Below, piece by piece: positions 16,756-33,580 of a stretch of DNA of 51,308 nt. The notes beneath the pieces were generated by a model. The model had not been told where the DNA came from, did not search any database, and saw only the letters and a program-made list of their open reading frames with translations. The stretch lies in contig CABMCB010000009.1 in assembly GCA_902384455.1 (NCBI GenBank), positions 1-51,308 on the forward strand, in the 5' to 3' direction. Made by a program: the position numbers and the translations under genes. Positions within the stretch are counted from its first letter, which is position 1. Every line of letters begins with the position of its first letter. Source of the stretch: an uncultured archaeon (lineage in GTDB: Archaea; Altiarchaeota; Altiarchaeia; IMC4; SCGC-AAA252-I15).

Positions 16756-17244
16756 ATGCACGCTAACCCCCGCCAGCCAGTAAACCAGCGCGCTTTCGCA
16801 AGAACCATATCTTTCGGCGAAGACCTAAACGACTTCGGAGGAAGCGCCGGACCCGAATACTACGACCTATCAAGGGAATACGAAAAAGACCTGCTGCCGA
16901 AACTATTGGAATCCGGCCCGCTTGCGCAAACCACACTAGACCTAATAAGGAGGCCTCCTGCGCCGGATTCGGATTTGAGTTTAAGCCCTTTTGAACATCA
17001 GCTTGTTTCATTTTCGAGGAGGCTTAGGAACGTGGATTTAATGGAGGGGTTTATGAAGTGCGCCCAGTTCCTTACGACGTTAGACCACGACACAAACGAG
17101 TACCGGCAGATTGCCCGAAGGTTCGGGATTAAACAACCGGAGGCGACAAATCAACAACCTGAAGTGCCCGCACCCAAACAAATAACGTCCGCCGCTCCGC
17201 AGAAGATAGACTCCCACGGCAGGACGGCAACAAGCTTAGATTGA
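16756..17244 (+). CDS. Hypothetical protein
   Basis: 162-aa ORF starting just after the gatB stop and filling the gap to tyrS; no motif recognised. Confidence 0.55.
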   Translation: MHANPRQPVNQRAFARTISFGEDLNDFGGSAGPEYYDLSREYEKDLLPKLLESGPLAQTTLDLIRRPPAPDSDLSLSPFEHQLVSFSRRLRNVDLMEGFMKCAQFLTTLDHDTNEYRQIARRFGIKQPEATNQQPEVPAPKQITSAAPQKIDSHGRTATSLD

Positions 17245-18225
17245 AGTCTTCTGTTTCGGCAGCGTCATTCCTTTTTTCTTCAGGTGTTCTCGCGCGGGCT
17301 CAAGGATTTCAGCGAGGTTTTTTGCGACGGCCGTTTTGAGGTCTGCGGGGTGTAGTTTGCCTGAAACGTAGTCTGAGTCTAGTGAGTCTGCGTTTTGGTA
17401 TGTGGTGTTTCCGCCGAACTTTTCAGGGCGCTCGACTGTCAACGTTCCTTTGCGGGGGAAAATGAGGTAGCGCACGATGTCCAATACTGGGTTGCTTTCC
17501 TTAGTAGGTGGGCAGTATGCTTTCTTCATTTTGGAGGCGATGCTTTCGGGCGCCTCGTCTATTGCGACAAGCGAGTCTGGAACTGAAGAGCTCATTTTGC
17601 TTTCAGGCCCCTTAAGCGAACACAACAGCGGAGTGTGGACTATCACCGGCTTCCTGTATCCGACCTCCGGCAGTATCTCCCTTGCAAGCATGTGAATTTT
17701 GCGCTGCTCTAACCCTCCGTAGGCGACGTCAGCATTAAGGTGCTTTATGTCAGCAATCTGCATCAGCGGGTAAATAACCTGGCTTGTGTGGGCATTCTCC
17801 ATGTCGCGCGCCACCTCCTGCATGCTACGCAAGGCTCGGTTGAGCGTCGTCTTCTGCGCGATGTCCAACACGTCGTGGACGTACTCCCGGTTGTACTGGA
17901 AGTCGCTCCCGCGCACGAACTCCGCCTTATTCAAACCCAAACCAACAAAACACTCCTTCCAGAAACCAACCATCTCAGCAATCCAATCCTCAGACCCCTT
18001 CCTGTTTAAGCCCGTGTGGATGTCGGCAAACAAAACCTTAACTTTGAACCCCGCACTCTGAAAATCCAAAAGCTTCTGGACCGTCATCATGTGGCCTATG
18101 TGCACCGGACCAGAAGTTTCGTATCCGCAATATACTGTGGGGTGGCCTGATTTATGGCATAATTCGGTGAGTTCCGCAGGCTCAACCACTTCGACGGTGT
18201 TCCTTCGGACGAGAGATTCGTCCAT
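17236..18225 (-). CDS. tyrS: Tyrosine--tRNA ligase (archaeal type)
   Basis: YCGYETSG..HIGH, YPLMQIAD, GGLEQRKIHMLARE, KMSSS, RPEKFGG, LHPADLK. Confidence 0.96.
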   Translation of the reverse strand: MDESLVRRNTVEVVEPAELTELCHKSGHPTVYCGYETSGPVHIGHMMTVQKLLDFQSAGFKVKVLFADIHTGLNRKGSEDWIAEMVGFWKECFVGLGLNKAEFVRGSDFQYNREYVHDVLDIAQKTTLNRALRSMQEVARDMENAHTSQVIYPLMQIADIKHLNADVAYGGLEQRKIHMLAREILPEVGYRKPVIVHTPLLCSLKGPESKMSSSVPDSLVAIDEAPESIASKMKKAYCPPTKESNPVLDIVRYLIFPRKGTLTVERPEKFGGNTTYQNADSLDSDYVSGKLHPADLKTAVAKNLAEILEPAREHLKKKGMTLPKQKTSI

Positions 18226-18227
18226 GT

Positions 18228-18476
18228 TTACGTCAAAGCCTCCAGGTCGCTTATTATGTTCCAGATGAACGTTTTTGCGTGCATCGGGATGTTGACGTCG
18301 CTGCTGACGCCTTCAAGTTCGTACACCAGGGTGGTCACCTTCACGTTCCAGTCGGGGGACTCCTTCTTAATCTTCTTGAGCTCGTCCTTGACGTGAGTTA
18401 GGGTGGTCTTCACGCGCCTTGGAAGTGCGGGGTCCACTTGGGCTTCGTCAATCTTCTGGAGTACGTCGTCTAACAT
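18228..18476 (-). CDS. UPF0147 family protein
   Basis: DPALPRRVK..LEGVSSDVNIPMHAKTFIWNIISDLE. Confidence 0.85.
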   Translation of the reverse strand: MLDDVLQKIDEAQVDPALPRRVKTTLTHVKDELKKIKKESPDWNVKVTTLVYELEGVSSDVNIPMHAKTFIWNIISDLEALT

Positions 18477-18541
18477 AATTTTCAGCCGCCATTAAAGAAA
18501 GCGGACAACCTTATAATAGGGTAGGTTGTAATTTAAAAGCG

Positions 18542-19138
18542 ATGGAACTCGTCCACAAGGGCGCTGAAGCGGAATTATTCCGCGAAGGCGACGTGCTTTT
18601 GAAGCGCCGCTCGCAAAAGAAATACCGCATACCTGAGGTTGACGATTTAATCCGCAAGAGACGGACCCGCAGGGAAGCCAAGGTGCTTAAGCAGCTGGCT
18701 GAGATGGGCGTGCCTGCGCCCAAACTAATTTCTGTGGACGAGAAAAGCTGCGAGCTCAAGATGGAGTACATCGACGGCAAAAAAGCCAAAGACCTCTTCG
18801 AAGAATTGCCAATGAAAGAGGCGGAAGCATTGTCCCGCCGCGTAGGAGAACTTCTGAAGCAAGTCCACGACGCCCACATAATACACAACGACCTAACAGG
18901 AAGCAACCTCCTTGTCACCAAAAAAATAGGCGTACACCTAATCGACTGGGGCCTGTCCGTCCAAAGCACCCGCACAGAAGACAAAGCAATGGACCTCGTA
19001 GTCTACAGAAGAAACCTACAAGCCACCCACCCACAAAGATTCCAACACCTCTGGGACGCAATGACCCAAGGATACGGACAAGAAACAGACGCAATAAAAC
19101 AAGTACAGAAAATACTCCACAGAGGAAGATACCTGTGA
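18542..19138 (+). CDS. bud32: KEOPS complex kinase/ATPase Bud32
   Basis: KGAEA, KRR..KKYRIPEVD..IRKRRTRREA, MEYIDG, IHNDLTGSN, IDWGL, EDKAMDL, RGRY. Confidence 0.93.
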   Translation: MELVHKGAEAELFREGDVLLKRRSQKKYRIPEVDDLIRKRRTRREAKVLKQLAEMGVPAPKLISVDEKSCELKMEYIDGKKAKDLFEELPMKEAEALSRRVGELLKQVHDAHIIHNDLTGSNLLVTKKIGVHLIDWGLSVQSTRTEDKAMDLVVYRRNLQATHPQRFQHLWDAMTQGYGQETDAIKQVQKILHRGRYL

Positions 19139-20061
19139 ACTCCGCAAGCAAAAACCCAGACATACGCGCCTTCACAGACACAGACCGGGCCAACGCCGCG
19201 GATGAAATCAGAAAAGTCCCCCTACTAGGATTCTCAACCTCAAACGAAGGATTCCCCTCCGGCGGAGCAGTAACAGACCGCCGACACAGAACAGTAATAA
19301 TAGACGGCCGGCAATTCATATTCAAACTATACGGCGAAGGCCCGCTCGTCCCAGCAGGATACACGCTGGAAGACGCCACGCTGATGTGCGACGCAACACG
19401 CGACTACTCCCGCCTACTCGAAAACTCAGGAATAAACGTCCCAGTACTCAAGGCAGTCCGGCCCGTAATCTACAAAGACACTTCCCCGAAAACATATGCC
19501 GTAGGTGTACTGCAAGAGCAGATTCACGACGGCGTCAACGCGCAGACTCTCGCCGAAACAGACGGCATGTCAGACGACTTCGTCGTCCGCCTGCACGGCG
19601 CCATTCTGTCCGCAACCAAACGCGTCATAGACTCCCCCTCCGCATACAGACCGAAAACTCCAATGGAAGCTCCAACAGGATTCGACAACCGCACCGACAA
19701 CTTCGTGTTAGACAAAGACGGACGGCTGTTTTTTGTAGACCCCTACCCGCCGTTTCAGCTGGCCGCGGACGGAAAATTCGCGGTAGACGCTCCGATGCGC
19801 AGGTCCATAAGCGAAGTCGACTTCGACTTAGTTCATGAAGTCACATGCGGTCGCTTGTTCCTGTACTGTCGTCCGCTTCTTTTTCTGCAGATGGCCCGCC
19901 CGCATTTGAGGGGGACTCTGGAAGCGCAAGCGTTAGGTTTTGTGCGCCAAAACGAACATCCCGAAGTCGCTCAGGCAATCGAAGCAGAAATAGCGGGCGG
20001 ATATCCTCAATACAAAAGCAAAAGTCCGGAAGTAGCCCGCGGCCTGATAGTGATACAATAA
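19135..20061 (+). CDS. Uncharacterised protein-kinase-like fold protein
   Basis: Gly-containing loop, IFKLY, GINVP, VLQEQI, catalytic-loop-like FDNRTDNF and FVD. GTGA overlap with bud32. Confidence 0.55.
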   Translation: MNSASKNPDIRAFTDTDRANAADEIRKVPLLGFSTSNEGFPSGGAVTDRRHRTVIIDGRQFIFKLYGEGPLVPAGYTLEDATLMCDATRDYSRLLENSGINVPVLKAVRPVIYKDTSPKTYAVGVLQEQIHDGVNAQTLAETDGMSDDFVVRLHGAILSATKRVIDSPSAYRPKTPMEAPTGFDNRTDNFVLDKDGRLFFVDPYPPFQLAADGKFAVDAPMRRSISEVDFDLVHEVTCGRLFLYCRPLLFLQMARPHLRGTLEAQALGFVRQNEHPEVAQAIEAEIAGGYPQYKSKSPEVARGLIVIQ

Positions 20062-20076
20062 AAAACGGCTGTCAGT

Positions 20077-21060
20077 CTAAACCAAGTTTACTCCTTGTAT
20101 TTCCTGTTTGATGTGTTGTGCGAGCGGGTTCACTACGTATCCGCCGGTTAGGCCTAGTTTCCTGTTGGCGTTTCTGCCTAAAACAGACCAGCGTCTTTCG
20201 TAGTGGTCAACAAGTTTTTCAAGAAGCCACGGGTTCTCAATTTCCATCCCCACACCCAACGAAAATAAAGCCAATTTTTCAGGAGCAACCAAAGCCGGAT
20301 GGCCTCTCAGGCGGTCGTCTTCTAATGCGCCTTCAAGTATGTCGCGGCCTAGGAAGTTTGTTGTAACCGCCGGGAGTTCTATGACGCGTGCCGGAATTTG
20401 GTGTTCCGGCGTTTCTTTTTCAGGCATGATTTGGAGTGTTCTGCGGTCTCCGGTCTGGTACCGTAATATGCTCCCTCTTTTTTCGACCAGTATATGAGCT
20501 GAGAGAAGCGCCGTTTCCTGCGGAGTCAACGGTTCCCCCGTCCTGATTTTATGCCTCATAGCCAAGATTGTGTCGTTTATGTCGCCCTCGTAAACCCCAA
20601 CCTTAAGTTCATTAAGCTTAGTCCAGTGTCCGCTGAATTCATCGTCAGGCCACGCTATGGAGTATGGGGTTGTGGCCTTGTCCAGTCGGGCGGTGTAGTT
20701 GTGCATTGAGTAAAACGTTGTCTCCGGATTGTCTTCAGCCAGCTTCCTTATGTACTCTAATGCTTCCCTGTTCCACGTTGCGCCCTGAAGGTTCGCCATC
20801 AAAACATCCCCCGAGATTTCATTCTCCCTAAAGGCCTCAAACAAAGGCGGAAGCTGATGCAGGTAGGTGAGTTCGAGGGGAATAGGATATAGTCGCGTTT
20901 GGATTCCTTCCCGCGTCAGCGCGTCGACAAGATTCTTGCCTGCCTCCATGGCGCCCTCCTCAAGCGGGTGTTCTCCCACGATGATGCCCACCTTCGCGGA
21001 GTGCGGCCGCATTAGTCCTACGTCGTCAATTGGCGTTTGACTTTGGCGTAAGGCATTCAT
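20077..21060 (-). CDS. Hypothetical protein, possible M14/AstE-like zinc hydrolase fold
   Basis: Long ORF; IIVGEHPLE (HxxE), YSMHNY, VIELP. The fold call is weak. Confidence 0.5.
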   Translation of the reverse strand: MNALRQSQTPIDDVGLMRPHSAKVGIIVGEHPLEEGAMEAGKNLVDALTREGIQTRLYPIPLELTYLHQLPPLFEAFRENEISGDVLMANLQGATWNREALEYIRKLAEDNPETTFYSMHNYTARLDKATTPYSIAWPDDEFSGHWTKLNELKVGVYEGDINDTILAMRHKIRTGEPLTPQETALLSAHILVEKRGSILRYQTGDRRTLQIMPEKETPEHQIPARVIELPAVTTNFLGRDILEGALEDDRLRGHPALVAPEKLALFSLGVGMEIENPWLLEKLVDHYERRWSVLGRNANRKLGLTGGYVVNPLAQHIKQEIQGVNLV

Positions 21061-21119: not shown

Positions 21120-21755
21120 TTACTGTGCCTGTTTGGTTTCCGCCAGAAACTTTTTTACTGCTGGTACGGCTTCCGGCAGCGAGCCGACGAAAACGTATCC
21201 TCTTTCCTTGAATCGAGTGTAGTCCGCGTGTTTGTCTTTTCTTTCCACCACTATCTTGAGGCGTGCGAGTTCGAACAGGTCCTCCTCGTTTGCGGGGTCG
21301 TCGCCTACGTAGACGTCCGGGAAAAGGCCGTCTGCGGCTTCGCTTTTCTTGTGGGTTCTGAATGCGAACGCCATAAGGTAGCGGTTGACTGCGATTGTTT
21401 TGACGCCTAAGCTTTCGCCTACTGCGTTCATCACGTCGTAGTCTCCGTTGCTGTAAAGCACGACTTCAGAGAATTTTTTGAGTTCCTCGACGGCTTGCCT
21501 GTTTTCCTGAGGGATGGCTTCGACGACGGATTTGATGGCGTCACGGCGTTTTTCAACGTCATAGTTGGAGAGTATTGCGTGCCTGTGCTTGTGGACGTCT
21601 ACTGCCGCAAGCTCCCCTTTCTTGTAGCGGGCCTTCATGTCCTCCATCTCCTTGCGTTCCTTATGGGGGACGTCCAGGCCGTCAAGAAGGGCCGCCATCG
21701 TGTGGGGGACGGCTACTACGTCGTCTACGTCTAGGCCTACGGTAGGCTTGCTCAT
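21120..21755 (-). CDS. HAD-superfamily phosphatase
   Basis: Motif I LDVDDV, motif II LYSNG, a Lys, motif IV YVGDD..ED. Confidence 0.75.
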   Translation of the reverse strand: MSKPTVGLDVDDVVAVPHTMAALLDGLDVPHKERKEMEDMKARYKKGELAAVDVHKHRHAILSNYDVEKRRDAIKSVVEAIPQENRQAVEELKKFSEVVLYSNGDYDVMNAVGESLGVKTIAVNRYLMAFAFRTHKKSEAADGLFPDVYVGDDPANEEDLFELARLKIVVERKDKHADYTRFKERGYVFVGSLPEAVPAVKKFLAETKQAQ

Positions 21756-21797
21756 CGTTTACATTATTTGCTTTTCCGTTAAGAAAAATGCGCCTTT

Positions 21798-23051
21798 TTA
21801 CTGTCCCAGAAGCTTTTCTTCTATGCGAAGCAGCCTGTTGTATTTGGCTACGCGCTCTCCTTTCGCTGGCGCGCCGATTTTCTGGTGAACCCTGAATGTG
21901 GGGTGGATGTTGGGGCATGCGACCGCCAAGTCAGAGGCGAATGTTTCGTCTGTTTCCCCGCTTCTGTGGCTTGGTATGGGAACAATACCGTTTTTGAGCG
22001 CGAACCTAGTCGTCAGAATCCCGTCCCAAAGGCTTCCCGCCTGATTCAACTTGATAAGAAGGCTGTTCAACGCGCCCTTCTCCTTCAGCATAGTAAGGCG
22101 GCCCACGTTTGTCGCAGTCAAGTCGTCTCCTATGATGAGCGCCTTGTCGCCGATTTTCCTTGTGAGCTCGGCGCTTCCTTCAACGTCATCCTGGTCGAAG
22201 GGGTCCTCAAAGCCCTTCATGAAGTAGTCATTGGTGAGTTCCACGTAGAAGTCCACAAGCTCGCCTGTAGTCAGAATCTTGCCGTCCACAGTGTACCCGC
22301 CGTGAACCTTCCAGTGGCTCGCAGCAGCGTCAACGACGATGCCCACATCCTTAAGATTCAACCCAGCAGCCTCAATAGCCTCCTCGGCCGTATCCAATAG
22401 TCCGCGGCATCCTTCGAAGCAGGCGAATCCGCCGTCTTCGCCGGTCTTATGGCGGTCGGGGCCGAAGCGGCTGAGCGTAATCTTTGAGAGCGCAAGATAG
22501 ACGTCGCGGCCCAAAGTGGTTGCTTCGCGGAAACTTTTCGCCTTCTCGAATGTGATTTGAGTGTTCTGGAAGTTGTCTGCGACCTTCTCCATCCTGTCTT
22601 CGCCTTGAACCCGGTGAAGGCCTCCCATCAGCAAATCGACGAGCGGAACAGGAAGCTCATACTTCTTGTTCCCAAGGTAACCGCCCAAATACTCGTACAA
22701 CTCAAGGCCTTCCGCGGCTGCGGCGGCTTTTGCGGCCGCCACTTCCACAGACAGGAATGCGTTTGCGCCAAGGTTGTGTTTGTCTGGGGTTTGGTCTAAC
22801 GCTACGAGTCTGTTGTGGATTGATTCTACGTCCGAGCCGTCTGAGCCGACAAGCGCCTTCCTTATTTTTGTGTTTATGTTCGTGACTGCGTCAGCAGCCG
22901 GCAGGTACTTCGCCTCGTATTTCCCGCGGCTTTTCCCGTAAGGCACGCTTGCGCGGCCGAAAAATCCTCCTTCGAGTGTTACGTCGGCTTCAACTGTCCA
23001 ACTTGCGCGGCTGTCAAGTATCGTGCGCGCTTTAACAGACGTTATGTTCAT
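21798..23051 (-). CDS. eno: Enolase-family protein with atypical active site
   Basis: ILDSR, LGANA, DAAAS, EDPF, GDDL, LIKLNQAG, SHRSGET, ERVAKYNRLLRIEE. Deviations: QN for QE, GEDGG for GDEGG, PYGKSRG for PSGASTG. Confidence 0.85.
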   Translation of the reverse strand: MNITSVKARTILDSRASWTVEADVTLEGGFFGRASVPYGKSRGKYEAKYLPAADAVTNINTKIRKALVGSDGSDVESIHNRLVALDQTPDKHNLGANAFLSVEVAAAKAAAAAEGLELYEYLGGYLGNKKYELPVPLVDLLMGGLHRVQGEDRMEKVADNFQNTQITFEKAKSFREATTLGRDVYLALSKITLSRFGPDRHKTGEDGGFACFEGCRGLLDTAEEAIEAAGLNLKDVGIVVDAAASHWKVHGGYTVDGKILTTGELVDFYVELTNDYFMKGFEDPFDQDDVEGSAELTRKIGDKALIIGDDLTATNVGRLTMLKEKGALNSLLIKLNQAGSLWDGILTTRFALKNGIVPIPSHRSGETDETFASDLAVACPNIHPTFRVHQKIGAPAKGERVAKYNRLLRIEEKLLGQ

Positions 23052-24318
23052 GCTCCTTCACCTTTTGCGCTGGAGGCTTTACTCCGTGCTCAACGTTATA
23101 GACCGTCTCCCTAAGGCGCGGAACCAAAGGCACGCTGCTGTTTATCCCCTGCATCCCTATGTGCTGCGCCCATTTGATAGCCTCGTAATCGAACGTTTCC
23201 CCGCAAATACTGGGGTAAACGCCCAACTCAAGAGCCTTCTTAGTCGCAATCTCAACCAACTGCCTTACCGCAGGATGGTGCTCATTGAAACGTTTGGCTA
23301 TGTACGGATTAGCCCTGTCCACAGCCAAAGTGAACTGCGTCAAATCATGCGGCCCCACCTGAATGAAGTCGAGGCCGTGTTTGGCGAACTCAGAGACTGT
23401 TAACGCTGCTGAGGGGACTTCAACCATTATGCCCACTTTGACGTCTTCCCGGGGCTTAAGCCCTACTTGGCGCATTATGTCGAGAGCGCCTTTGTATTCG
23501 CTCACGTCGCTTATCATCGGGAACATGACCCAAAGGTTTTTGGCTCCCGCATCGACCGCTTCCTTTATCCCCAGAAACTCCGTCTCAAGAAGCTCCTTCT
23601 GGTCAAGGCCGCGTCTTATTCCGCGCCAGCCTATCATGGGGTTGAGTTCCTGCGGTTCGCTGTCGCCTCCGATGAGGTTCCTGAGCTCGTTTGTAGGCAT
23701 GTCGAGGGTGCGGTAGCATATGGGTTTGTCGCCGTAGGCTTTGGCTGCGGTTGAAAGCACCCGCGAGAGTTCTTTGACGACGTATTCTCTGCCTTCGTCT
23801 CCTATGAGGCGTATGGGGTGTTTGCCCATGCTGATGAAGAGGAATTTGGCGCGAAGAGGCACTATGCCGTCGCTTATCTTCTTCGCCTTAAGCATAGTCT
23901 CAAGTAGCCCTGCGACTCCGTACACGTGCATTTTGGTGGGCAGGGGTTCGGCTTCGATTTCCTTCTTGGTCAGTTTGGGTGCGTGGTCGCCTTCGTAGAG
24001 TTTGCCTGCTGTGGCATCCAGCGTTACTGTTGTGCCGTCTTCGGCGTCCGGCATCTTCTGGGAGATGATTGTGGGCACGCCCAGTTCCTTGCATAGCAGG
24101 AGCGCGTGGCTGCTTGCGTTGCCTTTGAAGAAAATGATGCCCAGTGCCCCCCCCTTAATCATCTGGTACACTCTGTCTGGGCCGCTGTAGTCTGTGACTA
24201 CTACGGCATTTTTTTGGGGCTTGAATTCGCCGTTCTCGTGCATTATCCGCTTGAGCGGGCCGGCTACGACGCCTGAAAAGACGGTGGTGCCGGAAAGGAG
24301 TATTGCTTTGGATTCCAT
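23032..24318 (-). CDS. PEP-utilising enzyme (phospho-His swivel domain plus PEP/pyruvate-binding barrel) without an ATP-grasp domain
   Basis: SSHALLLCKELGVP, TVTLDATAGKLYEG, YRTLD, ELNPMIGWRG, MVEVPS, DLTQFTLAVDR, SICGE. Only 428 aa. GAGGT SD upstream. Confidence 0.88.
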   Translation of the reverse strand: MESKAILLSGTTVFSGVVAGPLKRIMHENGEFKPQKNAVVVTDYSGPDRVYQMIKGGALGIIFFKGNASSHALLLCKELGVPTIISQKMPDAEDGTTVTLDATAGKLYEGDHAPKLTKKEIEAEPLPTKMHVYGVAGLLETMLKAKKISDGIVPLRAKFLFISMGKHPIRLIGDEGREYVVKELSRVLSTAAKAYGDKPICYRTLDMPTNELRNLIGGDSEPQELNPMIGWRGIRRGLDQKELLETEFLGIKEAVDAGAKNLWVMFPMISDVSEYKGALDIMRQVGLKPREDVKVGIMVEVPSAALTVSEFAKHGLDFIQVGPHDLTQFTLAVDRANPYIAKRFNEHHPAVRQLVEIATKKALELGVYPSICGETFDYEAIKWAQHIGMQGINSSVPLVPRLRETVYNVEHGVKPPAQKVKEHEHNVC

Positions 24319-24354
24319 TGTGTTTACCTCACGTTGAAAAAGGAGGCTGGGGGC

Positions 24355-24645
24355 TCAAATGCTCTCCAGCTCTTTAGCCTCGTCCTTAACGAATATGGTG
24401 ACGTGCTTGACGTCCTTCAGTTTCCTGAGCACAGTCAGGAGGGCGTTGTGCGTCTTGTCTGAATTCACCATAAGCCGTATTTCCACGGTGGACGGGTTTT
24501 CGTCGAAGTTTTCGGTGGGGAGCTTAATCTCTATGTCCAGGATTTTGGCGCCTGTGGCGTCTATTTCTCGCAGCGTGCTGCCGAATCCTGTGTCTATGAC
24601 GTGCCCATGAAGGGTTACGTACAGTATTTTCTTCATTGTTCCCAC
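24355..24645 (-). CDS. Stand-alone ACT-like domain protein (resembles the C-terminal half of archaeal COG2061 ACT proteins)
   Basis: LHGHVIDT..TLREID..ILDIEIKLP..STVEIRL; beta-alpha-beta-beta-alpha-beta pattern. Start may be the ATG at 24636. Confidence 0.6.
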   Translation of the reverse strand: MGTMKKILYVTLHGHVIDTGFGSTLREIDATGAKILDIEIKLPTENFDENPSTVEIRLMVNSDKTHNALLTVLRKLKDVKHVTIFVKDEAKELESI

Positions 24646-24892
24646 CGAAATGTGAATTAGAATATGCGTCCAAGCCTTTTAAATGGAATCCACAGCTTGA
24701 CTAGGGCAAATAAGCGGAAAAATGAGCGGAGAAGGAAAATTTTAAGTAAAGTCAGCGCATAAAAAGTATTTTTTAAGGCTTAGTTCGCATGGTTGAGTGG
24801 GGTGGGGTTGGTGGTTATAGCCTACGTAGCTGTTGGTTACGTTAGTTCTTTACTCTGTCACATCGGCCTAATCGATTTTAAGAGGTGTATGT

Positions 24893-25759
24893 ATGCGTAA
24901 ACCTTATCTGGTATTTTTGGTATTGGCGTTATTAGCCGTGTTTGTTGCTGCGGACAGTTACATTAACACGCAGGGCGGTAATTTGGTTTTGAATTTAGCT
25001 GGCGGAAAACTTGGTGTTGGAACCACAACTATGGGTAAGACGGTGGATATTACCGGTGATTTGGCGCTTGCTATTGCGAATAACGACAGTAGCCCTGCTT
25101 TGTCTTTTTCTGTTGATTCATACGGAGCAAATTGGTGGTCTAGTAACTCATATAATCGCTCGAATGCGGGTTCAGGTTGGACGAGGACGATAACGATCAA
25201 GAGCGGCAATGTTGGCATTGGGACGACGAGTTTGGCGTCGAAGCTTGTTGTCGCAGGCAACATACTACCCAGTTCAGACAACTCCAGTAACCTTGGTTCT
25301 TCAAGCAAACGGTGGAGAAACCTGTATTATGCTGGGCAGTTGTTGACTAGTTCAGTTGGATACAGTGCGCCGCACGGCAAGAGTGCCGTAGAAGTCGTTT
25401 CAAACATCAAAACTAACTCTGACGGAGAAATAGACCACAAAACCGTAGATAAAAGCCTATTGGTTTATCAAACCGACTATTCTCCAGAATACTACCAGCA
25501 ACTTGATGAAATAGAGAAAATAAGCGAAACATCAGGCAAGTCGCCCACGGAGATAGCCAAGGAAAACGGATACAAAGCCTACCTGAACAACGAAACCACC
25601 GAATACGAGCTCATAAGCGTAAGCAAACTCATCCTCGCGCAACAACAAGCAATCAAAGAACTAAACGACGCCTACAACAACCAACAAGAAACAATAGACA
25701 AACTACAAACCGAACTATGCAAAAAAGACGAAAACTACACATTCTGCACCACAACCTAA
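24893..25759 (+). CDS. Secreted tail-fibre/adhesin-like protein with chaperone-like coiled-coil C-terminus
   Basis: Signal peptide; GKLGVGTT and GNVGIGTT repeats; GNILPSSDNSSNLGSSSKRWRNLY; QAIKEL..QQETIDKLQ. Confidence 0.6.
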   Translation: MRKPYLVFLVLALLAVFVAADSYINTQGGNLVLNLAGGKLGVGTTTMGKTVDITGDLALAIANNDSSPALSFSVDSYGANWWSSNSYNRSNAGSGWTRTITIKSGNVGIGTTSLASKLVVAGNILPSSDNSSNLGSSSKRWRNLYYAGQLLTSSVGYSAPHGKSAVEVVSNIKTNSDGEIDHKTVDKSLLVYQTDYSPEYYQQLDEIEKISETSGKSPTEIAKENGYKAYLNNETTEYELISVSKLILAQQQAIKELNDAYNNQQETIDKLQTELCKKDENYTFCTTT

Positions 25760-25858
25760 ATGAAAAAACCCATAATCGTATCCACCGAAGCCTTACTACT
25801 AACGGCAGTGCTTGCTCTAGCCGTTATTAGTAGTAATCCTGTTACGCCCCAAATATGA
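25760..25858 (+). other. 32-codon signal-peptide-like mini-ORF or gene remnant
   Basis: MKKPIIVSTEALLLTAVLALAVISSNPVTPQI*. It starts right after the upstream TAA and has an ATGA overlap with the next gene. Confidence 0.4.
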
Positions 25859-26583
25859 AATTATCAAAAAAAAATATTTTCAAGATTATCGCTGGTTGTG
25901 GAATCATCCTACTTCTTCTTATCTCTATGAGTTATACCCTAGAATTTGTTAACCTCACGCCGGGAGAAAAGCCGAGAGTTTTGTATGATAACTTGTTGCC
26001 GTTTCCATTCGAGAACGGATGTAATGGACATATTATCCTAGGAAATTATGCGGGTGGTTTTGACTATGGTTTATGGATTACGTCTCAGCCTAGAGACATC
26101 CGGGAAATACGTGATCTTGCGCAGTCAAAGGGTTTCTATACAGAATTTGAAACACGGGGGTTCAAGGCAGAAGCATTAGAGGATTTTAATAAGAGATATA
26201 ATCTCTCCCTCAAAGTTGGTGAGACTCTAGACGTTGGAAAATACACGGTAAGCGGCATCAAGCCGCAACCTGTACAGAAATTCTATGATGGCGTAACAAG
26301 TGCATCAGGAGAATATGCAGTCTATAACTACTATTATCTTGTTGTAGAGAAACGAGTTGGAGTCAATCAGCTGTACCACATTGAAATCCAGAACTTAGTT
26401 GAAAGCTCTGATGTTAGCGAAAGCCCCATCATTTTCAGCATTCAACAAGAAGGAACTTGTAAAATTGACGAAATTCAAGTGAGGGAAAACGTCAAGAAAT
26501 TACTTGATGAACTTGAATTATCTCAACAGTGGATTGATAATATGTCAGTCAAGAAGTCGTACCCTATAAACGTAGCGCTTTGA
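25855..26583 (+). CDS. Hypothetical membrane-anchored or secreted protein
   Basis: Basic N-terminus followed by a hydrophobic helix; tightly coupled to the subtilase gene. Confidence 0.7.
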   Translation: MKLSKKNIFKIIAGCGIILLLLISMSYTLEFVNLTPGEKPRVLYDNLLPFPFENGCNGHIILGNYAGGFDYGLWITSQPRDIREIRDLAQSKGFYTEFETRGFKAEALEDFNKRYNLSLKVGETLDVGKYTVSGIKPQPVQKFYDGVTSASGEYAVYNYYYLVVEKRVGVNQLYHIEIQNLVESSDVSESPIIFSIQQEGTCKIDEIQVRENVKKLLDELELSQQWIDNMSVKKSYPINVAL

Positions 26584-26584
26584 C

Positions 26585-28657
26585 ATGGACAAAATAACAA
26601 TCATTCATAAACAGCAATGGTTGGTGGCGGTTTTAATCTTGATAACTTGGTGTGCTCCTGTAATCGGCGTGGAAGGCAACATATTTAGAGATAGTGGAAC
26701 GCAGTATCTCCAAACTCATTTTCCCAAGGAAGAAATAAAATTTCAGTCAGAAGGAGTGTACATTCAATCTGAAACTAATGAAAGCTACACAATTCTTAAG
26801 TCCTATCATAACGGGAAACCTATAACTCTTGCCATAAGGCACAAAGACAATTCTGTGGGGGAATATCCTAAAATAGAGTCTGATTACATCGATTACATAC
26901 ATAACCTCTCAAGGCCGTACCAGAAAATGTACTCAAGCCTCCGGATTAAAATTAACAATGAATTTAACCGATTCCCTGCGCGAAAGGACTTAACTCCTTC
27001 TGAACGTTCTACGAAGATTCCTGTTGGGTTTGACTGTGAGAATACGCATGATTTGGTGAAGATAGCACGGGAAATATACGGGCGTGGCATCTACCCTTAT
27101 GTGTGGAATGGAGATTCATTCAAATTTGTCAGTGCGGAACTTGATATGGAAACGATTCTCACAATAGCCGAAATGACAGAAACGAAAGCTATTTGGTTTA
27201 ACCATCCTGTTACTACCAGCATCATCTACTCAACCGGCTCCGATGGAGTAAATAGCACATATTTACAAGACCAGTTAGATCTTACGGGAGACGGTGTTAT
27301 TGTTTCGGTCGTAGACACAGGTGTCGGCCCTATAAACTTGCACCCCGACTTGCCGTTCATTCCCTTTAATAACAGAGTTTCATTCATTGGAGATTCTTAT
27401 GATCACAGTTCAAATGGTCACGGCACCTTAGTGGGCGGAATTATCACGGGTCAAAACTCAACGTATCGATCTATGGCTCCAGATGTCACGTTGTTGAGTG
27501 CAAAGGTGATGATAGATACGTCTGTCTTGTCGCCACAGATTCCAAGTACGATAGATCGTGTTATCTCTGGCTTAGACTGGTCGTCCGATGATACAGCAGA
27601 TATAGTTTCACTTAGCCTAGGTTTTGAAAAACGAGCCAGTAATCCGCAGATAGTAGTAGACGGTTCGGAAAAAATAACTAAAGTTGTTGATTATCTAATC
27701 TACAATAAAGCAGTAAACATTATCACTGCTGTCGGCAATGAAAAAACAGATTACCCGCGAGTCCCTGCTGACGCATACAACAGTATAAGTGTGGGGGCCA
27801 CTACCGGTCATGATGATGGATACAACAAAGTCTGGAGGAATATCCTAAGCGGGGGCAGTAATGGAGGTATGACTGATGATGGCCGCACCAAGGTTGATGT
27901 TGTTGCACCCGGCCAAGATATTTACTCTCTTAACAAAAATTGGAACGCTACTGGGCAATTATATACAGCAGCAACAGGTACTAGTCTTGCTGCACCTCAT
28001 GTATCTGGTTTAACCGCATTACTGTGGCAATACCGATATGATCATGGCTTTGAAGATTGGCACATAAACTCCTTAATTGTGAAAGCAGCAGTAATAAACT
28101 CTGCAAAGAAAATTAAGGATCACGACGGATCAGCGTGGGGAACCGACGGCAGCCAACAGCCACTGGATATGGAGCAGGGCTCTGGAAGGATAGATTCTAT
28201 AGAAGCATACAATACCATTAATAAATCAGGTCGAATCCTGTACGACTCTGTTATTGCAAATAGTCCCAATATATACTACATCAATGTGACTGATGCTCCA
28301 ACGAATATTACTCTATCCCTCGTATGGTATCGAAAGGTCGTATATGCTGACATAAACAATGCCTCATCTAATCCTGTAATAGACGATATTGACCTTAAGC
28401 TCTACAATATTTCTGAATACATTGATCCAACTCCAATGGTGTATGCGCAATCAACGAGCGTGCGGGATAGTGTTGAGCATATTTTCACAGAAGTAAAAAC
28501 TAATGGAGAATACGTAATTGAAGTATACCCTTTCGCAATCTATGACGAAAAAGCCGACTATGCGCTTGCTTCCAGTCATCCAATGTACCGGAAAATATCA
28601 ATTTCCCTCCCCAGTGATGGTTGGCACCTCATTTCCTTCCCCATGGAGTTTACATGA
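26585..28657 (+). CDS. Secreted S8 (subtilisin-like) serine protease
   Basis: Signal peptide, prodomain, triad VDTG / HGT / GTSLAAPHV, oxyanion AVGN, C-terminal beta domain (LSLVW..DIDL..VEHI). Confidence 0.93.
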   Translation: MDKITIIHKQQWLVAVLILITWCAPVIGVEGNIFRDSGTQYLQTHFPKEEIKFQSEGVYIQSETNESYTILKSYHNGKPITLAIRHKDNSVGEYPKIESDYIDYIHNLSRPYQKMYSSLRIKINNEFNRFPARKDLTPSERSTKIPVGFDCENTHDLVKIAREIYGRGIYPYVWNGDSFKFVSAELDMETILTIAEMTETKAIWFNHPVTTSIIYSTGSDGVNSTYLQDQLDLTGDGVIVSVVDTGVGPINLHPDLPFIPFNNRVSFIGDSYDHSSNGHGTLVGGIITGQNSTYRSMAPDVTLLSAKVMIDTSVLSPQIPSTIDRVISGLDWSSDDTADIVSLSLGFEKRASNPQIVVDGSEKITKVVDYLIYNKAVNIITAVGNEKTDYPRVPADAYNSISVGATTGHDDGYNKVWRNILSGGSNGGMTDDGRTKVDVVAPGQDIYSLNKNWNATGQLYTAATGTSLAAPHVSGLTALLWQYRYDHGFEDWHINSLIVKAAVINSAKKIKDHDGSAWGTDGSQQPLDMEQGSGRIDSIEAYNTINKSGRILYDSVIANSPNIYYINVTDAPTNITLSLVWYRKVVYADINNASSNPVIDDIDLKLYNISEYIDPTPMVYAQSTSVRDSVEHIFTEVKTNGEYVIEVYPFAIYDEKADYALASSHPMYRKISISLPSDGWHLISFPMEFT

Positions 28658-29799
28658 ATAAAATACCCAAAGCAATTACTTTAGGGATGTTAATACTAAC
28701 GACTCTTATTCTAGTTTCAGCTGTACCCCCCATCTCTCCGATATACTCCGGTTATGTATTTATCAATGGCTCTCTTGCAACAGAAGGGACAAATGTAACT
28801 GTGTATTCAAATAAGAGTGGAAATCAAGTTGGCATGACTTCTGTTTATGAAGGGGGAGTTTATTTCATGATACTCTACAGTAATATTAGTGTGAATGACT
28901 CCGATACGGGTCACTTTCTATCATGGAAAATTAACGGAGAAAATGTGACCTCTCCTCCGTCTAACTTCTTTGCAATTGTGTCTGGGGATCAACGTACAAA
29001 TACCTCCCTTAGCATCGGGGAAACACCATTGAGGATAATGAGCTATTCCCCACCTCAATCAGATCTGCGCGTTAATGAGGGTAGCGTAACGAAGTTCACT
29101 CTATATACAGTTTCTCCATGGGGCAATAACCTTACCTACAATTGGTTCATAAACGGCGAGATTAACTCCACTCAAATGAACTTTGGATATAATTTCACTG
29201 AAGGTAGTAACGGCACCAAGACTGTTCTAGTTATCGTGAGTAATGGCACAAACATAGTGTCCCAAGGTTGGAATATCACAATTAACCGGCATCCAAACAT
29301 CACCCCTGCTATCCCTAACCAAACAGTCAAATCCAATACTATCTATGACTTCAACTTGACTCCTTACGAATACGATATCGAGGACACTAATGAGAATCTT
29401 AGCTGGACAGTAAGCGAAGATAACCCCGCACTCGCTACCATATACGTGGATTTTGAAACTGATCTCCTAACTATCATCCCAGTTTCTGATGCTGTCGGAA
29501 CTGATGATGTTAAGCTGACGTTGTGGGATTCCAATAATGCAACTGCCACCCAGTGGATAACTCTTATTATAGAACGAAGATGTGACCCTCTAGATCCCCC
29601 CTCAGCAGGTGACTGGGACATAGGATATAATACCACTTGTACTGATGCTAACATCTCCTTAGATTCGAATGCCAACATAACAATAGATGCAGACAAAGAA
29701 CTTTACCTCAATAATTCGAACATAGTATTAAGCGGCAGAATATTCTTCAATAACAAGAGTATATTGGCCCTCAATGGATCAAGTATACACTTCAATTAG
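28654..29799 (+). CDS. Secreted Ig/cadherin-like domain surface protein
   Basis: The ATG at 28654 overlaps the protease stop. Signal peptide, then PIYSGYVFING, LTYNWFING, DIEDTNENLSWTV, LTLWDS; many N-x-S/T sequons. Confidence 0.7.
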   Translation: MNKIPKAITLGMLILTTLILVSAVPPISPIYSGYVFINGSLATEGTNVTVYSNKSGNQVGMTSVYEGGVYFMILYSNISVNDSDTGHFLSWKINGENVTSPPSNFFAIVSGDQRTNTSLSIGETPLRIMSYSPPQSDLRVNEGSVTKFTLYTVSPWGNNLTYNWFINGEINSTQMNFGYNFTEGSNGTKTVLVIVSNGTNIVSQGWNITINRHPNITPAIPNQTVKSNTIYDFNLTPYEYDIEDTNENLSWTVSEDNPALATIYVDFETDLLTIIPVSDAVGTDDVKLTLWDSNNATATQWITLIIERRCDPLDPPSAGDWDIGYNTTCTDANISLDSNANITIDADKELYLNNSNIVLSGRIFFNNKSILALNGSSIHFN

Positions 29800-31085: not shown

Positions 31086-32153
31086 ATGGCGAAGAAACTT
31101 TTCATTCCCGGACCAGTGGACGTGAGCCCTGAAGTTGCGGCGAAAATGAGCGAACCCATGATTAGCCACAGAAGCAAGGATCTCTACGACCTTCATGCCC
31201 ACCTAATCGAAAGCCTAAAGCGCCTCATGTACACTCAAAACCACGTAATAACATTCACAAGCAGCAGCACAGGCGTATGGGAGGCGGCCGTCAGAAACTG
31301 CGTTCAAAAGAAGGTTTTGTGCGTGGACAACGGCGCGTTCGCTAGCCGCTGGTTTGATGTGGCAGTCGCGTGCGGGAAGGAGGCGGACAAGCTTGAGATC
31401 CCTTGGGGGAGCACAGTCAAGCCGGAGCAGCTTGATGCTGCGTTGTCCAAAGGTGGATACGACTCCGTCACATTGGTCCACAACGAAACTTCTACTGCGG
31501 CGATGGCGAACCTTCAGTCTCTTGCTCCAGTGTTCAAAAGTCACGGCGTAACTTCGCTTGTGGACTGCGTTTCAAGCCTTGCGGGAGTAAAAATTGAGGT
31601 GGACAAACTCGGTTTGGACGTCTGCCTTTCAGGAACCCAGAAGGCATTGGCTGTCGCTCCGGGAATGGCTTTTGCCTCAGTGAGCCCAAAGGCGCTTGAA
31701 ATAAGTAAGACCCAGAAAGGCAAAGGATACTACTTCGACTTCATAGTGCACATGAAGTACTGGGAGAAAGACCACCAGACTCCTGCGACCCCAAGCATAC
31801 CTCACATGCGCTCACTCGACTACCAGCTGACTAAGATTCTCGACGTCGAAGGAGCTGAAAACCGCTTCAAACGGCATCATGAGATGGCGAATACAGCGCG
31901 CTCTTGGGCGAAAAAGCACTTTGAGCTTTTCACCGAAGAATGGTGCGCAAGCGACACCGTAACCTGCGTCAAAAACACGCGAAATGCCGACCTCTCAGCG
32001 CTCGGAAAAGAGCTTTCAGCGAAAGGATACCAGTTCAGCAACGGATACGGCAAACTCAAAGGACAAGCCTTCCGCATAGCCCACATGGGAGACAGAAAAC
32101 CCGAAGAACTCGCAACGTACCTTGCCGCAATAGACGACGTCCTCAAGCTATGA
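31086..32153 (+). CDS. Class V PLP aminotransferase (serine-pyruvate / archaeal phosphoserine aminotransferase family)
   Basis: LFIPGP, ISHRS, VHNETST, VDCVSS, SGTQKALAVAPG, QTPATP, FRIAHMG. Confidence 0.9.
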   Translation: MAKKLFIPGPVDVSPEVAAKMSEPMISHRSKDLYDLHAHLIESLKRLMYTQNHVITFTSSSTGVWEAAVRNCVQKKVLCVDNGAFASRWFDVAVACGKEADKLEIPWGSTVKPEQLDAALSKGGYDSVTLVHNETSTAAMANLQSLAPVFKSHGVTSLVDCVSSLAGVKIEVDKLGLDVCLSGTQKALAVAPGMAFASVSPKALEISKTQKGKGYYFDFIVHMKYWEKDHQTPATPSIPHMRSLDYQLTKILDVEGAENRFKRHHEMANTARSWAKKHFELFTEEWCASDTVTCVKNTRNADLSALGKELSAKGYQFSNGYGKLKGQAFRIAHMGDRKPEELATYLAAIDDVLKL

Positions 32154-32953
32154 GCGACTACATAAAACTCTTTAAGAAAATAGGCAAAACCGCAAAAACA
32201 ACGCTTGAAGACCTGCCAGACGGCGCGCAAATCACAGGGAAAAACCCGATAGGACAAAAAAGCATCAAAGCGGACATAGCGCTTGAAAAACTGGTCGCAG
32301 ACTTCCTACGCGAAAAAACAGGCGGCACGCTAATAACAGAAGAAGCAGGCAAAATAGACCTCGGCAAAGGAGAAGACGTTTTCGTATTAGACCCCCTTGA
32401 CGGAAGCAGCAACTACAGCCGAGGCGTACCATACTACGGCCTAATAATAGCGCGCTCGGCAGGCTTCACCTACAACGACATAACCCACGCCTACGTCATA
32501 AACCTCGCCTCCGGCACCGAATACTTCGCCGACGAAGAAGGCGCTTTTTCCGGCGGAAAACCCCTTGTGCCTTCACCAGTAACTTCGCTTAAGGACTCCG
32601 TGATAGAGATAGACACATTCAAGAACCCGCGAATATACGATACGCTGCGGCCGCTTCTTAAGTCTGTGAAGGATATCCGGCGTATTGGGGCAAGCGGGGT
32701 TGCCCTTGCTCATGTGGCATCAGGCGCCCACCAGATTTACTTGAACCCCCACAATCCAATAAGTGTCGTCCACGCGCCGGGCATATACGTCGCCGAGAAG
32801 GCGGGGGCTTTGTTTACGGACTGCAGGGGAAACTTCATTAATCCTAAACTCGACATATCAGTGAAAATAGAGTTTATGGTGGCCGCCAACAAGGAAATCC
32901 AGCGGCAGGCGCTCTCTCTTATGGGCGTCAAAACAGAGAGCGAAGTCGCCTAA
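32150..32953 (+). CDS. Inositol monophosphatase / FBPase family protein
   Basis: ATGA overlap gives start 32150. AD..E, ITEE, LDPLDGSSN, RRIGAS. Confidence 0.88.
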   Translation: MSDYIKLFKKIGKTAKTTLEDLPDGAQITGKNPIGQKSIKADIALEKLVADFLREKTGGTLITEEAGKIDLGKGEDVFVLDPLDGSSNYSRGVPYYGLIIARSAGFTYNDITHAYVINLASGTEYFADEEGAFSGGKPLVPSPVTSLKDSVIEIDTFKNPRIYDTLRPLLKSVKDIRRIGASGVALAHVASGAHQIYLNPHNPISVVHAPGIYVAEKAGALFTDCRGNFINPKLDISVKIEFMVAANKEIQRQALSLMGVKTESEVA

Positions 32954-32959
32954 ATTACT

Positions 32960-33580
32960 GTGGCCGTCCTAATTTACCTTCTGGCTTTGGGGTTTGTGAT
33001 AGGGTTAAGCGGGGCGCTTCTTCCTGGGCCGCTTCTTGTTTACACTATCTCTGAGTCTTTGAAGCGGGGGCGAATGGCTGGGCCTTTGATTATTTTGGGG
33101 CACGTTATCGTTGAGGTTTTTTTGATTGGGTTGATTGCTTTAGGGGTTGCAACTTTTGTTAGTTCCCCATTTTTCGTGGCTGCGGTAAGCGTCATTGGAG
33201 GTTTTGTTTTCGTTTTGATGGGGGTGCAGCTGTTCAGGACCGAATTCAAGTATGAGAAGAAGGAGGATTTCGCTCACCATATTGTGTTGGGCGGAATGTT
33301 TTTCTCGGCGTTCAATCCTGGGTTCCCAATTTGGTGGGCGACGGCCGGAAGCCGGATGCTTTTGGAGGGATACGCGGCTGCCGGATTGTTGGGTGTGGCG
33401 GTAATCGTTGTGGGACACTGGTTTGCGGACGTAGGCTACTTCACTTTAGTGTCTTTTGCGGTGCACCGCGGCCGCGAAAAAATCCTTACTGAAAAGTATG
33501 TGCAGTGGGTAAGGAAGGGTCTTGCTTTGGTGCTTGCTGCAGTCGGATTATACTTCTTACGCACCGGATTACCGGTATAA
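32960..33580 (+). CDS. LysE family transporter
   Basis: GLSGALLPGPLL, GH..VE, NPGFPIWWATAG, GHWFAD. Confidence 0.88.
   Translation: MAVLIYLLALGFVIGLSGALLPGPLLVYTISESLKRGRMAGPLIILGHVIVEVFLIGLIALGVATFVSSPFFVAAVSVIGGFVFVLMGVQLFRTEFKYEKKEDFAHHIVLGGMFFSAFNPGFPIWWATAGSRMLLEGYAAAGLLGVAVIVVGHWFADVGYFTLVSFAVHRGREKILTEKYVQWVRKGLALVLAAVGLYFLRTGLPV

Follow-up and report, generated by a model that had tools for sequence, protein, structure and literature searches.

A lineage-restricted gene unit pairing a divergent enolase with a PEP-utilising enzyme in an uncultured altiarchaeon

We analysed a stretch of 51,308 nucleotides from an uncultured archaeon of the Altiarchaeota (contig CABMCB010000009.1 of assembly GCA_902384455.1; the whole stretch is called the window hereafter), in which a small ACT-fold protein, a phosphoenolpyruvate (PEP)-utilising enzyme of the PEP synthase (PpsA) type and a divergent paralogue of enolase (eno2) are encoded one after the other. 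The central observation is that both glutamates expected to serve the 3-hydroxyl of 2-phosphoglycerate (2-PG) are replaced in the enolase paralogue, by Asn and Asp, while its neighbour, the PEP-utilising enzyme (hereafter the PEP-utiliser), lacks the ATP-grasp domain of PpsA and is changed at two substrate-site motifs. The explanation that we prefer, to which we would give about an even chance, is that the three genes form a lineage-restricted accessory module with a specialised, non-glycolytic role in enol-phosphate metabolism, in which the enolase paralogue would be neofunctionalised and the pair would not carry ordinary glycolytic flux; any named substrate deserves far less weight than this. 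Each of the three proteins belongs to a known superfamily but, judged by motifs and domain content, the enolase copy lacks one defining feature of enolase proper (the two glutamates), and the PEP-utiliser lacks defining features both of PpsA (the ATP-grasp domain) and of Enzyme I of the phosphotransferase system (PTS; the HPr-binding domain, with no HPr found in the genome).

The assembly from which the window comes (G000; 2.41 Mb, 91.9% complete) was compared with other Altiarchaeota genomes, among them G008, G009, G042 and G032. A first, sequence-only reading of this DNA had proposed to look for a separate canonical eno and ppsA in the genome, and both were found, together with ppdK and pyk: the canonical enolase reaches 432.8 bits against PF00113, versus 198.3 bits for the copy in the window, and PpsA is full-length. 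With these genes the genome has a full canonical PEP-pyruvate node, so the enolase/PEP-utiliser pair is accessory.

The module is narrowly distributed. The enolase paralogue was found in 3 of 61 Altiarchaeota genomes (G000, G008 and G009, in the last as a fragment at a contig edge), and a search of 5.8 billion proteins returned three close relatives (59-60% identity, 513-539 bits), followed by ordinary enolases (275 bits, 42-45% identity). The PEP-utiliser had one close relative in the same collection (P0122; 61% identity, 560 bits; next match at 289 bits), and the small protein matched only contigs of G008 and G009 in a scan of about 185,000 species genomes. A scan of metagenome contigs with the PEP-utiliser gave 15 loci, none of which resembles the module: the best identity was 31%, and the two best loci (L055 and L056) encode proteins of 936 and 589 aa with another architecture. 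The known carriers are three species genomes plus two further metagenomic proteins.

Gene order is shared among these carriers. In G008 (L040), the small gene, the PEP-utiliser gene and eno2 follow one another on a single strand, with a 4-nt overlap (9661-9664) between the PEP-utiliser gene and eno2. In G009 the genes lie at contig edges: one contig carries the small gene and breaks off after codon 201 of the PEP-utiliser gene, and another breaks off after codon 124 of the enolase paralogue. Translational linkage of the two enzymes is supported by their overlap in the window, by the same order in G008 and by the adjacency of the small gene and the PEP-utiliser gene in G009. The sequence-only reading had also stated that it knew of no described pathway with this gene set, and our literature search of article texts likewise found no published description.

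All reading frames are intact in G000 and G008, and nonsynonymous divergence (pN 0.07-0.29) is far below the saturated synonymous divergence (pS 0.73-0.88) for all three genes in the pairs G008-G009 and G000-G008. The sequences thus show a conserved, translationally linked enzyme pair that is under selection and has rebuilt active sites, with an orphan ACT-fold partner, in genomes that have no need of another enolase or PEP-consuming enzyme. In trees, the four known enolase paralogues group together with 100% support and their stem is 0.65 long, and the PEP-utiliser clade sits on its own long stem of 1.07. The free tree places the enolase paralogue clade outside the canonical Altiarchaeota clade, but a tree that joins the two is not rejected (p-AU 0.613), so that a duplication within the lineage is possible, with transfer as the other candidate origin.

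Active site of the enolase paralogue

The 417-aa enolase paralogue is recognised by both enolase families of Pfam (Enolase_N, PF03952, 115.3 bits; Enolase_C, PF00113, 196.5 bits) and is 42% identical to the canonical enolase of its own genome; it barely clears the cut-off of the enolase equivalog TIGR01060 of NCBIfam (312.4 bits vs 300). We aligned 120 listed proteins, corresponding to the 4 paralogues and 116 ordinary enolases, and compared them column by column. Nine substitutions are common to 4/4 paralogues: E163N, E206D and R397K, at columns where 116/116 ordinary enolases carry the canonical residue, S38Y and D205E (115/116), A40K and A147R (114/116), T42R (112/116) and E246H (102/116). 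The 29 canonical enolases of Altiarchaeota behave in the same way as the ordinary ones, with six of the nine columns invariant, the other three canonical in 26-28 of 29, and the paralogue residue found in 0/29 at all nine; columns 163 and 206 are Glu in 29/29. The sequence-only reading had asked whether such substitutions might be common to ordinary orthologues, and they are shared neither by the 116 ordinary enolases nor by the 29 canonical enolases of the phylum.

Columns 163 and 206 correspond to Glu168 and Glu211 of yeast enolase, and it is on this correspondence that the two replaced glutamates are assigned to the 3-hydroxyl of 2-PG. Yeast enolase variants E168Q and E211Q have reportedly lost about five orders of magnitude of activity. 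A review gives Lys345 of enolase the role of base and has Glu211 donate a proton to the C3 hydroxyl (PMC13004432). Many other active-site residues are retained: S41, H146, Q162, D241, E282, D309, K334, H362, R363, S364 and K391 are found in 4/4 paralogues, and D241, E282, D309, K334, K391, H362, R363 and S364 are also found in 116/116 ordinary enolases. In the yeast enzyme these columns correspond to the Mg ligands Asp/Glu/Asp, to Lys345 and Lys396 and to His373-Arg374-Ser375; S41 is the second-metal serine, and the others are the metal ligands, the base and enolate-stabilising lysines and the phosphate site. The earlier claim that motifs deviate while core catalytic residues are kept was accordingly right about the deviations and about the base Lys, metal ligands and phosphate site, but it fails at the column of Glu211, one of the two acid/base catalysts, where the paralogues carry Asp.

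The loops around the site are changed as well. The L2 loop, between His146 and Gln162, counts 15 residues in the paralogues vs 7 in canonical enolases, which corresponds to an 8-residue insert, and 10-11 residues are deleted after the first lid. Basic residues are gained at Lys40, Arg42, Lys44, Arg147 and His246, position 44 being variable in ordinary enolases, and these five residues probably lie in the lid loops, a placement taken from yeast enolase structures. The new residues are invariant among the four paralogues. In common with canonical enolase, the paralogue has the two-domain fold, the Mg ligands, both active-site lysines (the base and the second Lys), Ser41 and the His-Arg-Ser motif for the phosphate; it differs by having Asn/Asp in place of both glutamates, by the L2 insert and the deletion, and by being a second copy beside a canonical one. 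Enolase proper, as opposed to the wider superfamily, is generally regarded as a family with a single reaction and an active site that hardly varies. A conserved paralogue with swapped leaving-group glutamates and basic lids is a concrete lead to a new reaction.

The PEP-utiliser and the small ACT-fold protein

The PEP-utiliser, a protein of 428 aa, matches PEP-utilizers (PF00391, 35.6 bits) and PEP-utilizers_C (PF02896, 191 bits), and no match in it was found by Pfam to PF01326 (PPDK_N, the ATP-grasp domain) or to PF05524 (the N-terminal domain of Enzyme I). Its gene begins at the His domain: the protein aligns to positions 353-790 of the 798-position PpsA model NF005057 (266 bits vs a cut-off of 598), and its closest solved relative is the PEP synthase 8a8e, with 273.6 bits over chain residues 376-798. 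What is present is a phosphohistidine swivel domain (His71) followed by a PEP/pyruvate-binding TIM barrel (Cys372). In an alignment of 16 sequences the H71 column is invariant and the C372 column is nearly so (at least 90%), and the phosphate-binding arginines and the Mg-binding Glu and Asp are retained together with both residues.

This swivelling His domain, the PEP/pyruvate barrel and the His, Cys, Arg, Glu and Asp residues are what the protein has in common with PEP synthase, PPDK and PTS Enzyme I. Compared with PpsA, including that of the same genome (32% identity), it has no ATP-grasp domain and two altered motifs, and its gene overlaps that of the enolase paralogue; compared with Enzyme I, it lacks the HPr-binding domain, and HPr itself (PF00381) was found in 0/3 module-carrying genomes, which are 82-92% complete. 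The altered motifs were counted against the 118 relatives listed by a protein search. Asn324, present in 118/118 of the others, is His here (N324H), so that G[ST]NDLTQ reads GPHDLTQ, and Glu158, present in 114/114 of the others, is Lys (E158K), so that R-x-E reads R-A-K, with Lys158 two residues past a phosphate-binding arginine. The column counts gave three further changes (G153V, L154P and S320Q). Apart from the Asn324 and Glu158 columns, the PEP-binding residues closely match those of PpsA 8a8e.

Several other short PEP-utilisers (P0131, P0134, P0135 and P0139-P0142) were considered as relatives and rejected. They retain the canonical Asn and Glu and cluster tightly with full-length or partial PpsA, and are therefore fragments or splits of ordinary PpsA. 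We also considered that the PEP-utiliser might be one half of a split PpsA, and found no stand-alone ATP-grasp gene: PF01326 lies only inside the full-length PpsA and PPDK frames of G000 and only inside a 940-aa frame of G008, and was not found in G009 (in genomes of the completeness given above).

The small protein is the product of the first gene of the conserved unit, and its orthologues directly precede the PEP-utiliser gene in G008 and G009. Two starts are available to it, and the ATG at 24636 is more likely than the GTG at 24645, because the resulting 93 aa match both the length of the orthologues and the copy in the ESM Atlas, which begins at residue 4 of the longer form. It stays under every family cut-off, with ACT_5 at 18.3 bits vs 27 (E 0.002), ACT_4 at 15.6 vs 27 and Saccharop_dh_N at 14.1 vs 23.5 (E 0.065) in Pfam and a weak match to the IlvM model NF008362 in NCBIfam, and its profile retrieved only its own cluster and one marginal match among 1.84 billion representatives. 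Its AlphaFold2 model (pLDDT 79) is beta-alpha-beta-beta-alpha-beta, and Foldseek places ACT-type domains on top (1u8s, TMq 0.73; the ACT domains of SerB2 and PGDH), together with the Saccharop_dh_N domain of MJ1480 (3mgj, TMq 0.67); its look-alikes in the ESM Atlas are ACT clusters, which we treat as leads only. Altogether, the predicted structure, rather than any sequence score, assigns the small protein to the ACT fold. In size, fold, weak ACT_5 and IlvM matches and position beside an enzyme gene it resembles acetolactate synthase small subunits and stand-alone ACT proteins, from which it differs by its scores below cut-off, by the lack of a detectable relative outside the module and by its quite different partner enzymes. 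A complex prediction for the enolase paralogue and the PEP-utiliser with the small protein as partner gave a score of 0.00 and a mark of 0.32, and was used neither for nor against an interaction.

The names that the sequence-only reading had given to the gene products (ACT, PEP-utiliser, enolase and HAD) are correct, from Pfam for the two enzymes and from predicted folds for the ACT and HAD proteins.

Possible chemistry of the pair and competing explanations

Acidic residues have been lost and basic ones gained in the sites of both the enolase paralogue and the PEP-utiliser, which suggests that the two enzymes share an enol-phosphate substrate more anionic than 2-PG or PEP. It had been proposed from the sequence that both enzymes co-adapted to an altered substrate, with the HAD protein then releasing or transferring the phosphoryl group; charge changes in the same direction in both enzymes fit the former part, but the HAD step is not upheld, its gene lying outside the conserved unit.

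If the module has such a specialised role, the enolase copy would still coordinate a 2-phospho-carboxylate to two Mg ions and abstract its C2 proton to form an enolate, as enolases do. The acid would bear an extra anionic group, since the residues responsible for expelling the 3-hydroxyl are replaced and the lids are cationic. Candidate substrates, which our data do not tell apart, may be 2,3-bisphosphoglycerate, 2-phospho-3-sulfolactate or a 2-phospho-hydroxy-dicarboxylate. The anionic group could leave without acid catalysis to yield PEP (phosphate from 2,3-bisphosphoglycerate, sulfite from 2-phospho-3-sulfolactate) or, alternatively, could stay on C3 to yield a substituted PEP; the enolase copy would accordingly interconvert the acid and an enol phosphate, either PEP itself or a PEP substituted at C3. 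The PEP-utiliser would then run only the PEP half-reaction, in which the enol phosphate and His71 give a 2-oxo acid and phosphohistidine. Considering that it has no ATP-grasp domain and that no HPr was found, the phosphoryl group would pass to another, non-nucleotide acceptor. PEP/pyruvate exchange is known for the PEP-utiliser family, and on this basis the simplest acceptor may be another 2-oxo acid that enters the site after the first, the enzyme then being a ping-pong PEP:2-oxo-acid transphosphorylase; we prefer this acceptor because it needs no further part. The small protein could be a metabolite-sensing allosteric subunit, like the small subunits of acetolactate synthase, as its fold and its position as first gene would fit.

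Taken to its full extent, this would be chemistry new to both families and a new small pathway around PEP in an archaeal lineage that is uncultivated. An enolase-fold enzyme would eliminate or add, at C3 of a 2-phospho acid, an anionic group in place of water (phosphate, sulfite or a carbon that bears a carboxylate), a phosphohistidine enzyme independent of nucleotides would shuttle the phosphoryl group of the enol phosphate from one 2-oxo acid to another or to a new acceptor, and an orphan ACT-fold subunit would control both; so complete a scheme is a tentative proposal that we think is probably not right in full. Two known enzymes are of interest here. PhpH, an enolase homologue of phosphinothricin biosynthesis, forms carboxyphosphonoenolpyruvate in bacteria and is encoded in a phosphonate gene cluster; it is a precedent for a paralogue of the enolase family whose substrate, in a specialised pathway, is a more anionic 2-PG analogue, and no PEP-utiliser partner is known for it. 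ComA is a phosphosulfolactate synthase (PF02679) that adds sulfite to PEP. It belongs to an unrelated family and offers a chemical analogy only, with an enolate at C2 of a 2-phospho acid and an anionic group at C3; PF02679 was not found in the genome of the window.

Several points weigh against a specialised module of this kind. Beyond a neofunctionalised pair, everything in it depends on residue changes, and the placement of these changes in the L1, L2 and L3 lids and near the phosphate site is taken from the known structures of yeast enolase, PPDK and Enzyme I. The Asp at the Glu211 column and the Glu that precedes it could act as general acid, so that some 2-PG dehydration may survive, and TIGR01060 is still passed, at 312.4 bits against 300. 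Conservation among the paralogues is of limited weight because only four sequences from closely related sources are available. Finally, strict adjacency is not universal, because in G009 (L041, contig C281, 417-1237, minus strand) a UPF0175 (ribbon-helix-helix) and DUF3368 gene pair lies directly upstream of the enolase fragment, in the position held by the PEP-utiliser in G000 and G008. This pair looks like a toxin-antitoxin pair, and its position could reflect an insertion or an assembly break.

A more conservative explanation is that both enzymes are ordinary isoenzymes: the enolase copy would turn 2-PG into PEP, the truncated PEP-utiliser would turn PEP into pyruvate while its phosphate is dumped or exchanged, and feedback through the ACT protein would make of this a regulated bypass of lower glycolysis. 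The clearing of TIGR01060, the retention of all metal ligands, of the base Lys and of the phosphate residues, and the close match of the remaining PEP-binding residues to PpsA 8a8e are all as one would expect from isoenzymes. We nevertheless think this unlikely, given that enolase, pyruvate kinase, PpsA and PPDK are already in the genome, that PEP hydrolysis without energy conservation would be wasteful, that both leaving-hydroxyl glutamates are replaced in 4/4 paralogues and invariant in 116/116 and 29/29 ordinary enolases, and that five new basic lid residues are hard to explain with an unchanged substrate. Somewhat more doubtful still is a PEP-driven phosphorelay, a minimal PTS-like system in which the enolase copy would supply PEP locally and the PEP-utiliser, autophosphorylated on His71, would in turn phosphorylate the small protein on His13 or His15. 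The architecture of the PEP-utiliser, built like Enzyme I or PpsA but with neither the nucleotide- nor the HPr-binding part, could be read in this way, as could the invariance of TLHGHVIDTGFG in the 3 orthologues of the small protein, a motif that in the model spans the passage from strand 1 into helix 1, with His13/His15 at this junction like His15 of HPr, and the position of the small gene immediately upstream of the PEP-utiliser in G008 and G009. However, the folds matched by the small protein are ACT-type, PII-like and Saccharop_dh_N, and HPr is absent from the Foldseek matches listed; neither HPr nor EII nor any further PTS component turned up (HPr in 0/3 genomes); and the rebuilt enolase active site would be left unexplained. 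The 'GH[IV]ID' motif of the small protein also occurs in the Saccharop_dh_N family, to which the family match is weak here (E 0.04-0.07); no phosphorylation is known in that family, which we count against a phosphorelay.

The genes could also be leftover duplicates of PpsA and enolase, split or decaying and nearing loss, or they could encode structural pseudoenzymes. The very narrow distribution (3/61 genomes), the long branches and the lost ATP-grasp domain would be in line with decay, but intact frames, a pN far under pS in all three genes, the presence of the catalytic His, Cys, Lys and metal ligands in every copy and the invariance of the new residues in the 4 paralogues argue the other way, and no stand-alone ATP-grasp gene was found that would complete a split PpsA; we regard decay as very improbable.

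If the specialised module that we favour does make a new enol phosphate or catalyse PEP:2-oxo-acid phosphotransfer, it would extend both central carbon metabolism and the known biochemistry of the Altiarchaeota, which cannot be cultured, by one reaction, although the rarity of the module limits its ecological weight. A PpsA-type enzyme with the PEP half-reaction only is likewise a lead to a new reaction and, having no nucleotide domain, makes one ask what takes up the phosphoryl group. Since the genes overlap and are changed in the same electrostatic direction, the two enzymes can be expressed and assayed together.

Gene layout and neighbouring genes

The ORF (open reading frame) list shows four co-oriented ORFs on the minus strand between 24645 and 21120, and the DNA confirms the 20-nt overlap of the PEP-utiliser and enolase genes, as the sequence-only reading had described. 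Coordinates are collected in the table.

Features of the module and of its surroundings in the window (positions of the 51,308-nt stretch)
Feature	Positions	Strand	Remarks
Small ACT-fold protein	24355..24645	-	96 aa from GTG 24645, or 93 aa from ATG 24636
PpsA-type PEP-utilising enzyme without N-terminal ATP-grasp domain	23032..24318	-	428 aa
Divergent enolase paralogue (eno2)	21798..23051	-	417 aa
Overlap of PEP-utiliser gene end and enolase paralogue gene start	23032..23051	-	20 nt, read in the DNA
HAD-fold protein, phosphoserine-phosphatase-like C1-cap type	21120..21755	-	211 aa
TTTAAAA, TATA-box-like	24677..24683	-	41 nt upstream of ATG 24636; sequence read
TTTTTCTT run	21781..21788	-	10 nt past the stop codon of the enolase paralogue; sequence read
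Orphan protein downstream of the HAD-like gene	20077..21060	-	327 aa; outside the conserved unit
Class-V aminotransferase and inositol-monophosphatase-family gene pair	31086..32953	+	

The TTTAAAA element, which resembles the archaeal TATA consensus, is a possible promoter of the three-gene unit, and the TTTTTCTT run could be an oligo-T terminator of the archaeal kind that sets the conserved unit apart from the HAD-like gene. A sigma-70 promoter and terminator scan, which is ill-suited to archaea, gave counts equal to those of shuffled sequence, and tRNA and Rfam scans found no tRNA gene and no Rfam match in the whole window.

The fourth co-oriented gene does not travel with the other three. 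No Pfam family scores over cut-off for the HAD-like protein (PF00702, E 0.097), but its AlphaFold2 model (pLDDT 80) leads Foldseek to HAD enzymes, with the phosphoserine phosphatase of M. jannaschii (1f5s/1l7o, TMq 0.60-0.61) as best natural match, and its DxD/S/K/DD residues (D9, D11, S102, K137, D152 and D153), which correspond to the four HAD motifs (DxD, S/T, K, DD), are common to a homologue in G042. The gene was found in 2 of 61 Altiarchaeota genomes, and one partial relative was found among the 5.8 billion proteins; the G042 homologue is 35% identical and stands alone beside an unrelated gene, in a genome with only a canonical-level enolase match (238.8 bits). Neither the HAD-like gene nor the 327-aa orphan was found in G008 or G009. 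The conserved unit therefore comprises three genes and not four, contrary to the four-gene operon that had been suggested, and the oligo-T run precedes the start of the HAD-like gene; the HAD-fold protein would at most be an accessory phosphatase specific to this genome. The 327-aa orphan belongs to no Pfam or NCBIfam family; its look-alikes among periplasmic binding proteins (TM 0.39-0.46) were set aside because of the low quality of the Atlas model (pLDDT 0.41).

The aminotransferase-inositol-monophosphatase pair directly and divergently adjoins the unit in G008, and 6.4 kb separate the two in the window. The aminotransferase of G009, cut by a contig end, is also divergent to the unit, with one gene between, a DUF434/DUF5616 gene (L045, contig C263, 873-1646, plus strand) that is absent from this position in G008. 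As a specific partner of the module the class-V aminotransferase was rejected: it is a housekeeping gene found in 55 of 61 genomes, and shares with the module its position but not its distribution. In the window (31086-33580, plus strand) the aminotransferase gene is followed by the inositol-monophosphatase-family gene and then by a LysE-type exporter gene, and the G008 counterpart lies at 6097-7955 of L040 (minus strand). At four other aminotransferase loci of Altiarchaeota, the flanking ORFs have no BLAST match (E 1e-8) to the window neighbours, with the exception of a homologue of a 384-aa orphan, two ORFs upstream of the aminotransferase in G032.

What separates the unit from the aminotransferase pair in the window is a stretch at 24893-29799 (plus strand) with a G+C content of 0.41-0.46 vs about 0.52 around it, which encodes four co-oriented proteins, including a 690-aa subtilase (PF00082) and the 384-aa orphan. 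Hydrophobic N-termini suggest that these proteins are secreted or at the surface, and the low-GC stretch may be an insertion. On the other side of the unit, 17236-20061 encodes an archaeal-type tyrosyl-tRNA synthetase, a RIO/Bud32-like small kinase (198 aa) and a 308-aa protein without a family; the neighbours in this region are ordinary housekeeping genes, and GatB is encoded at 15375-16754.

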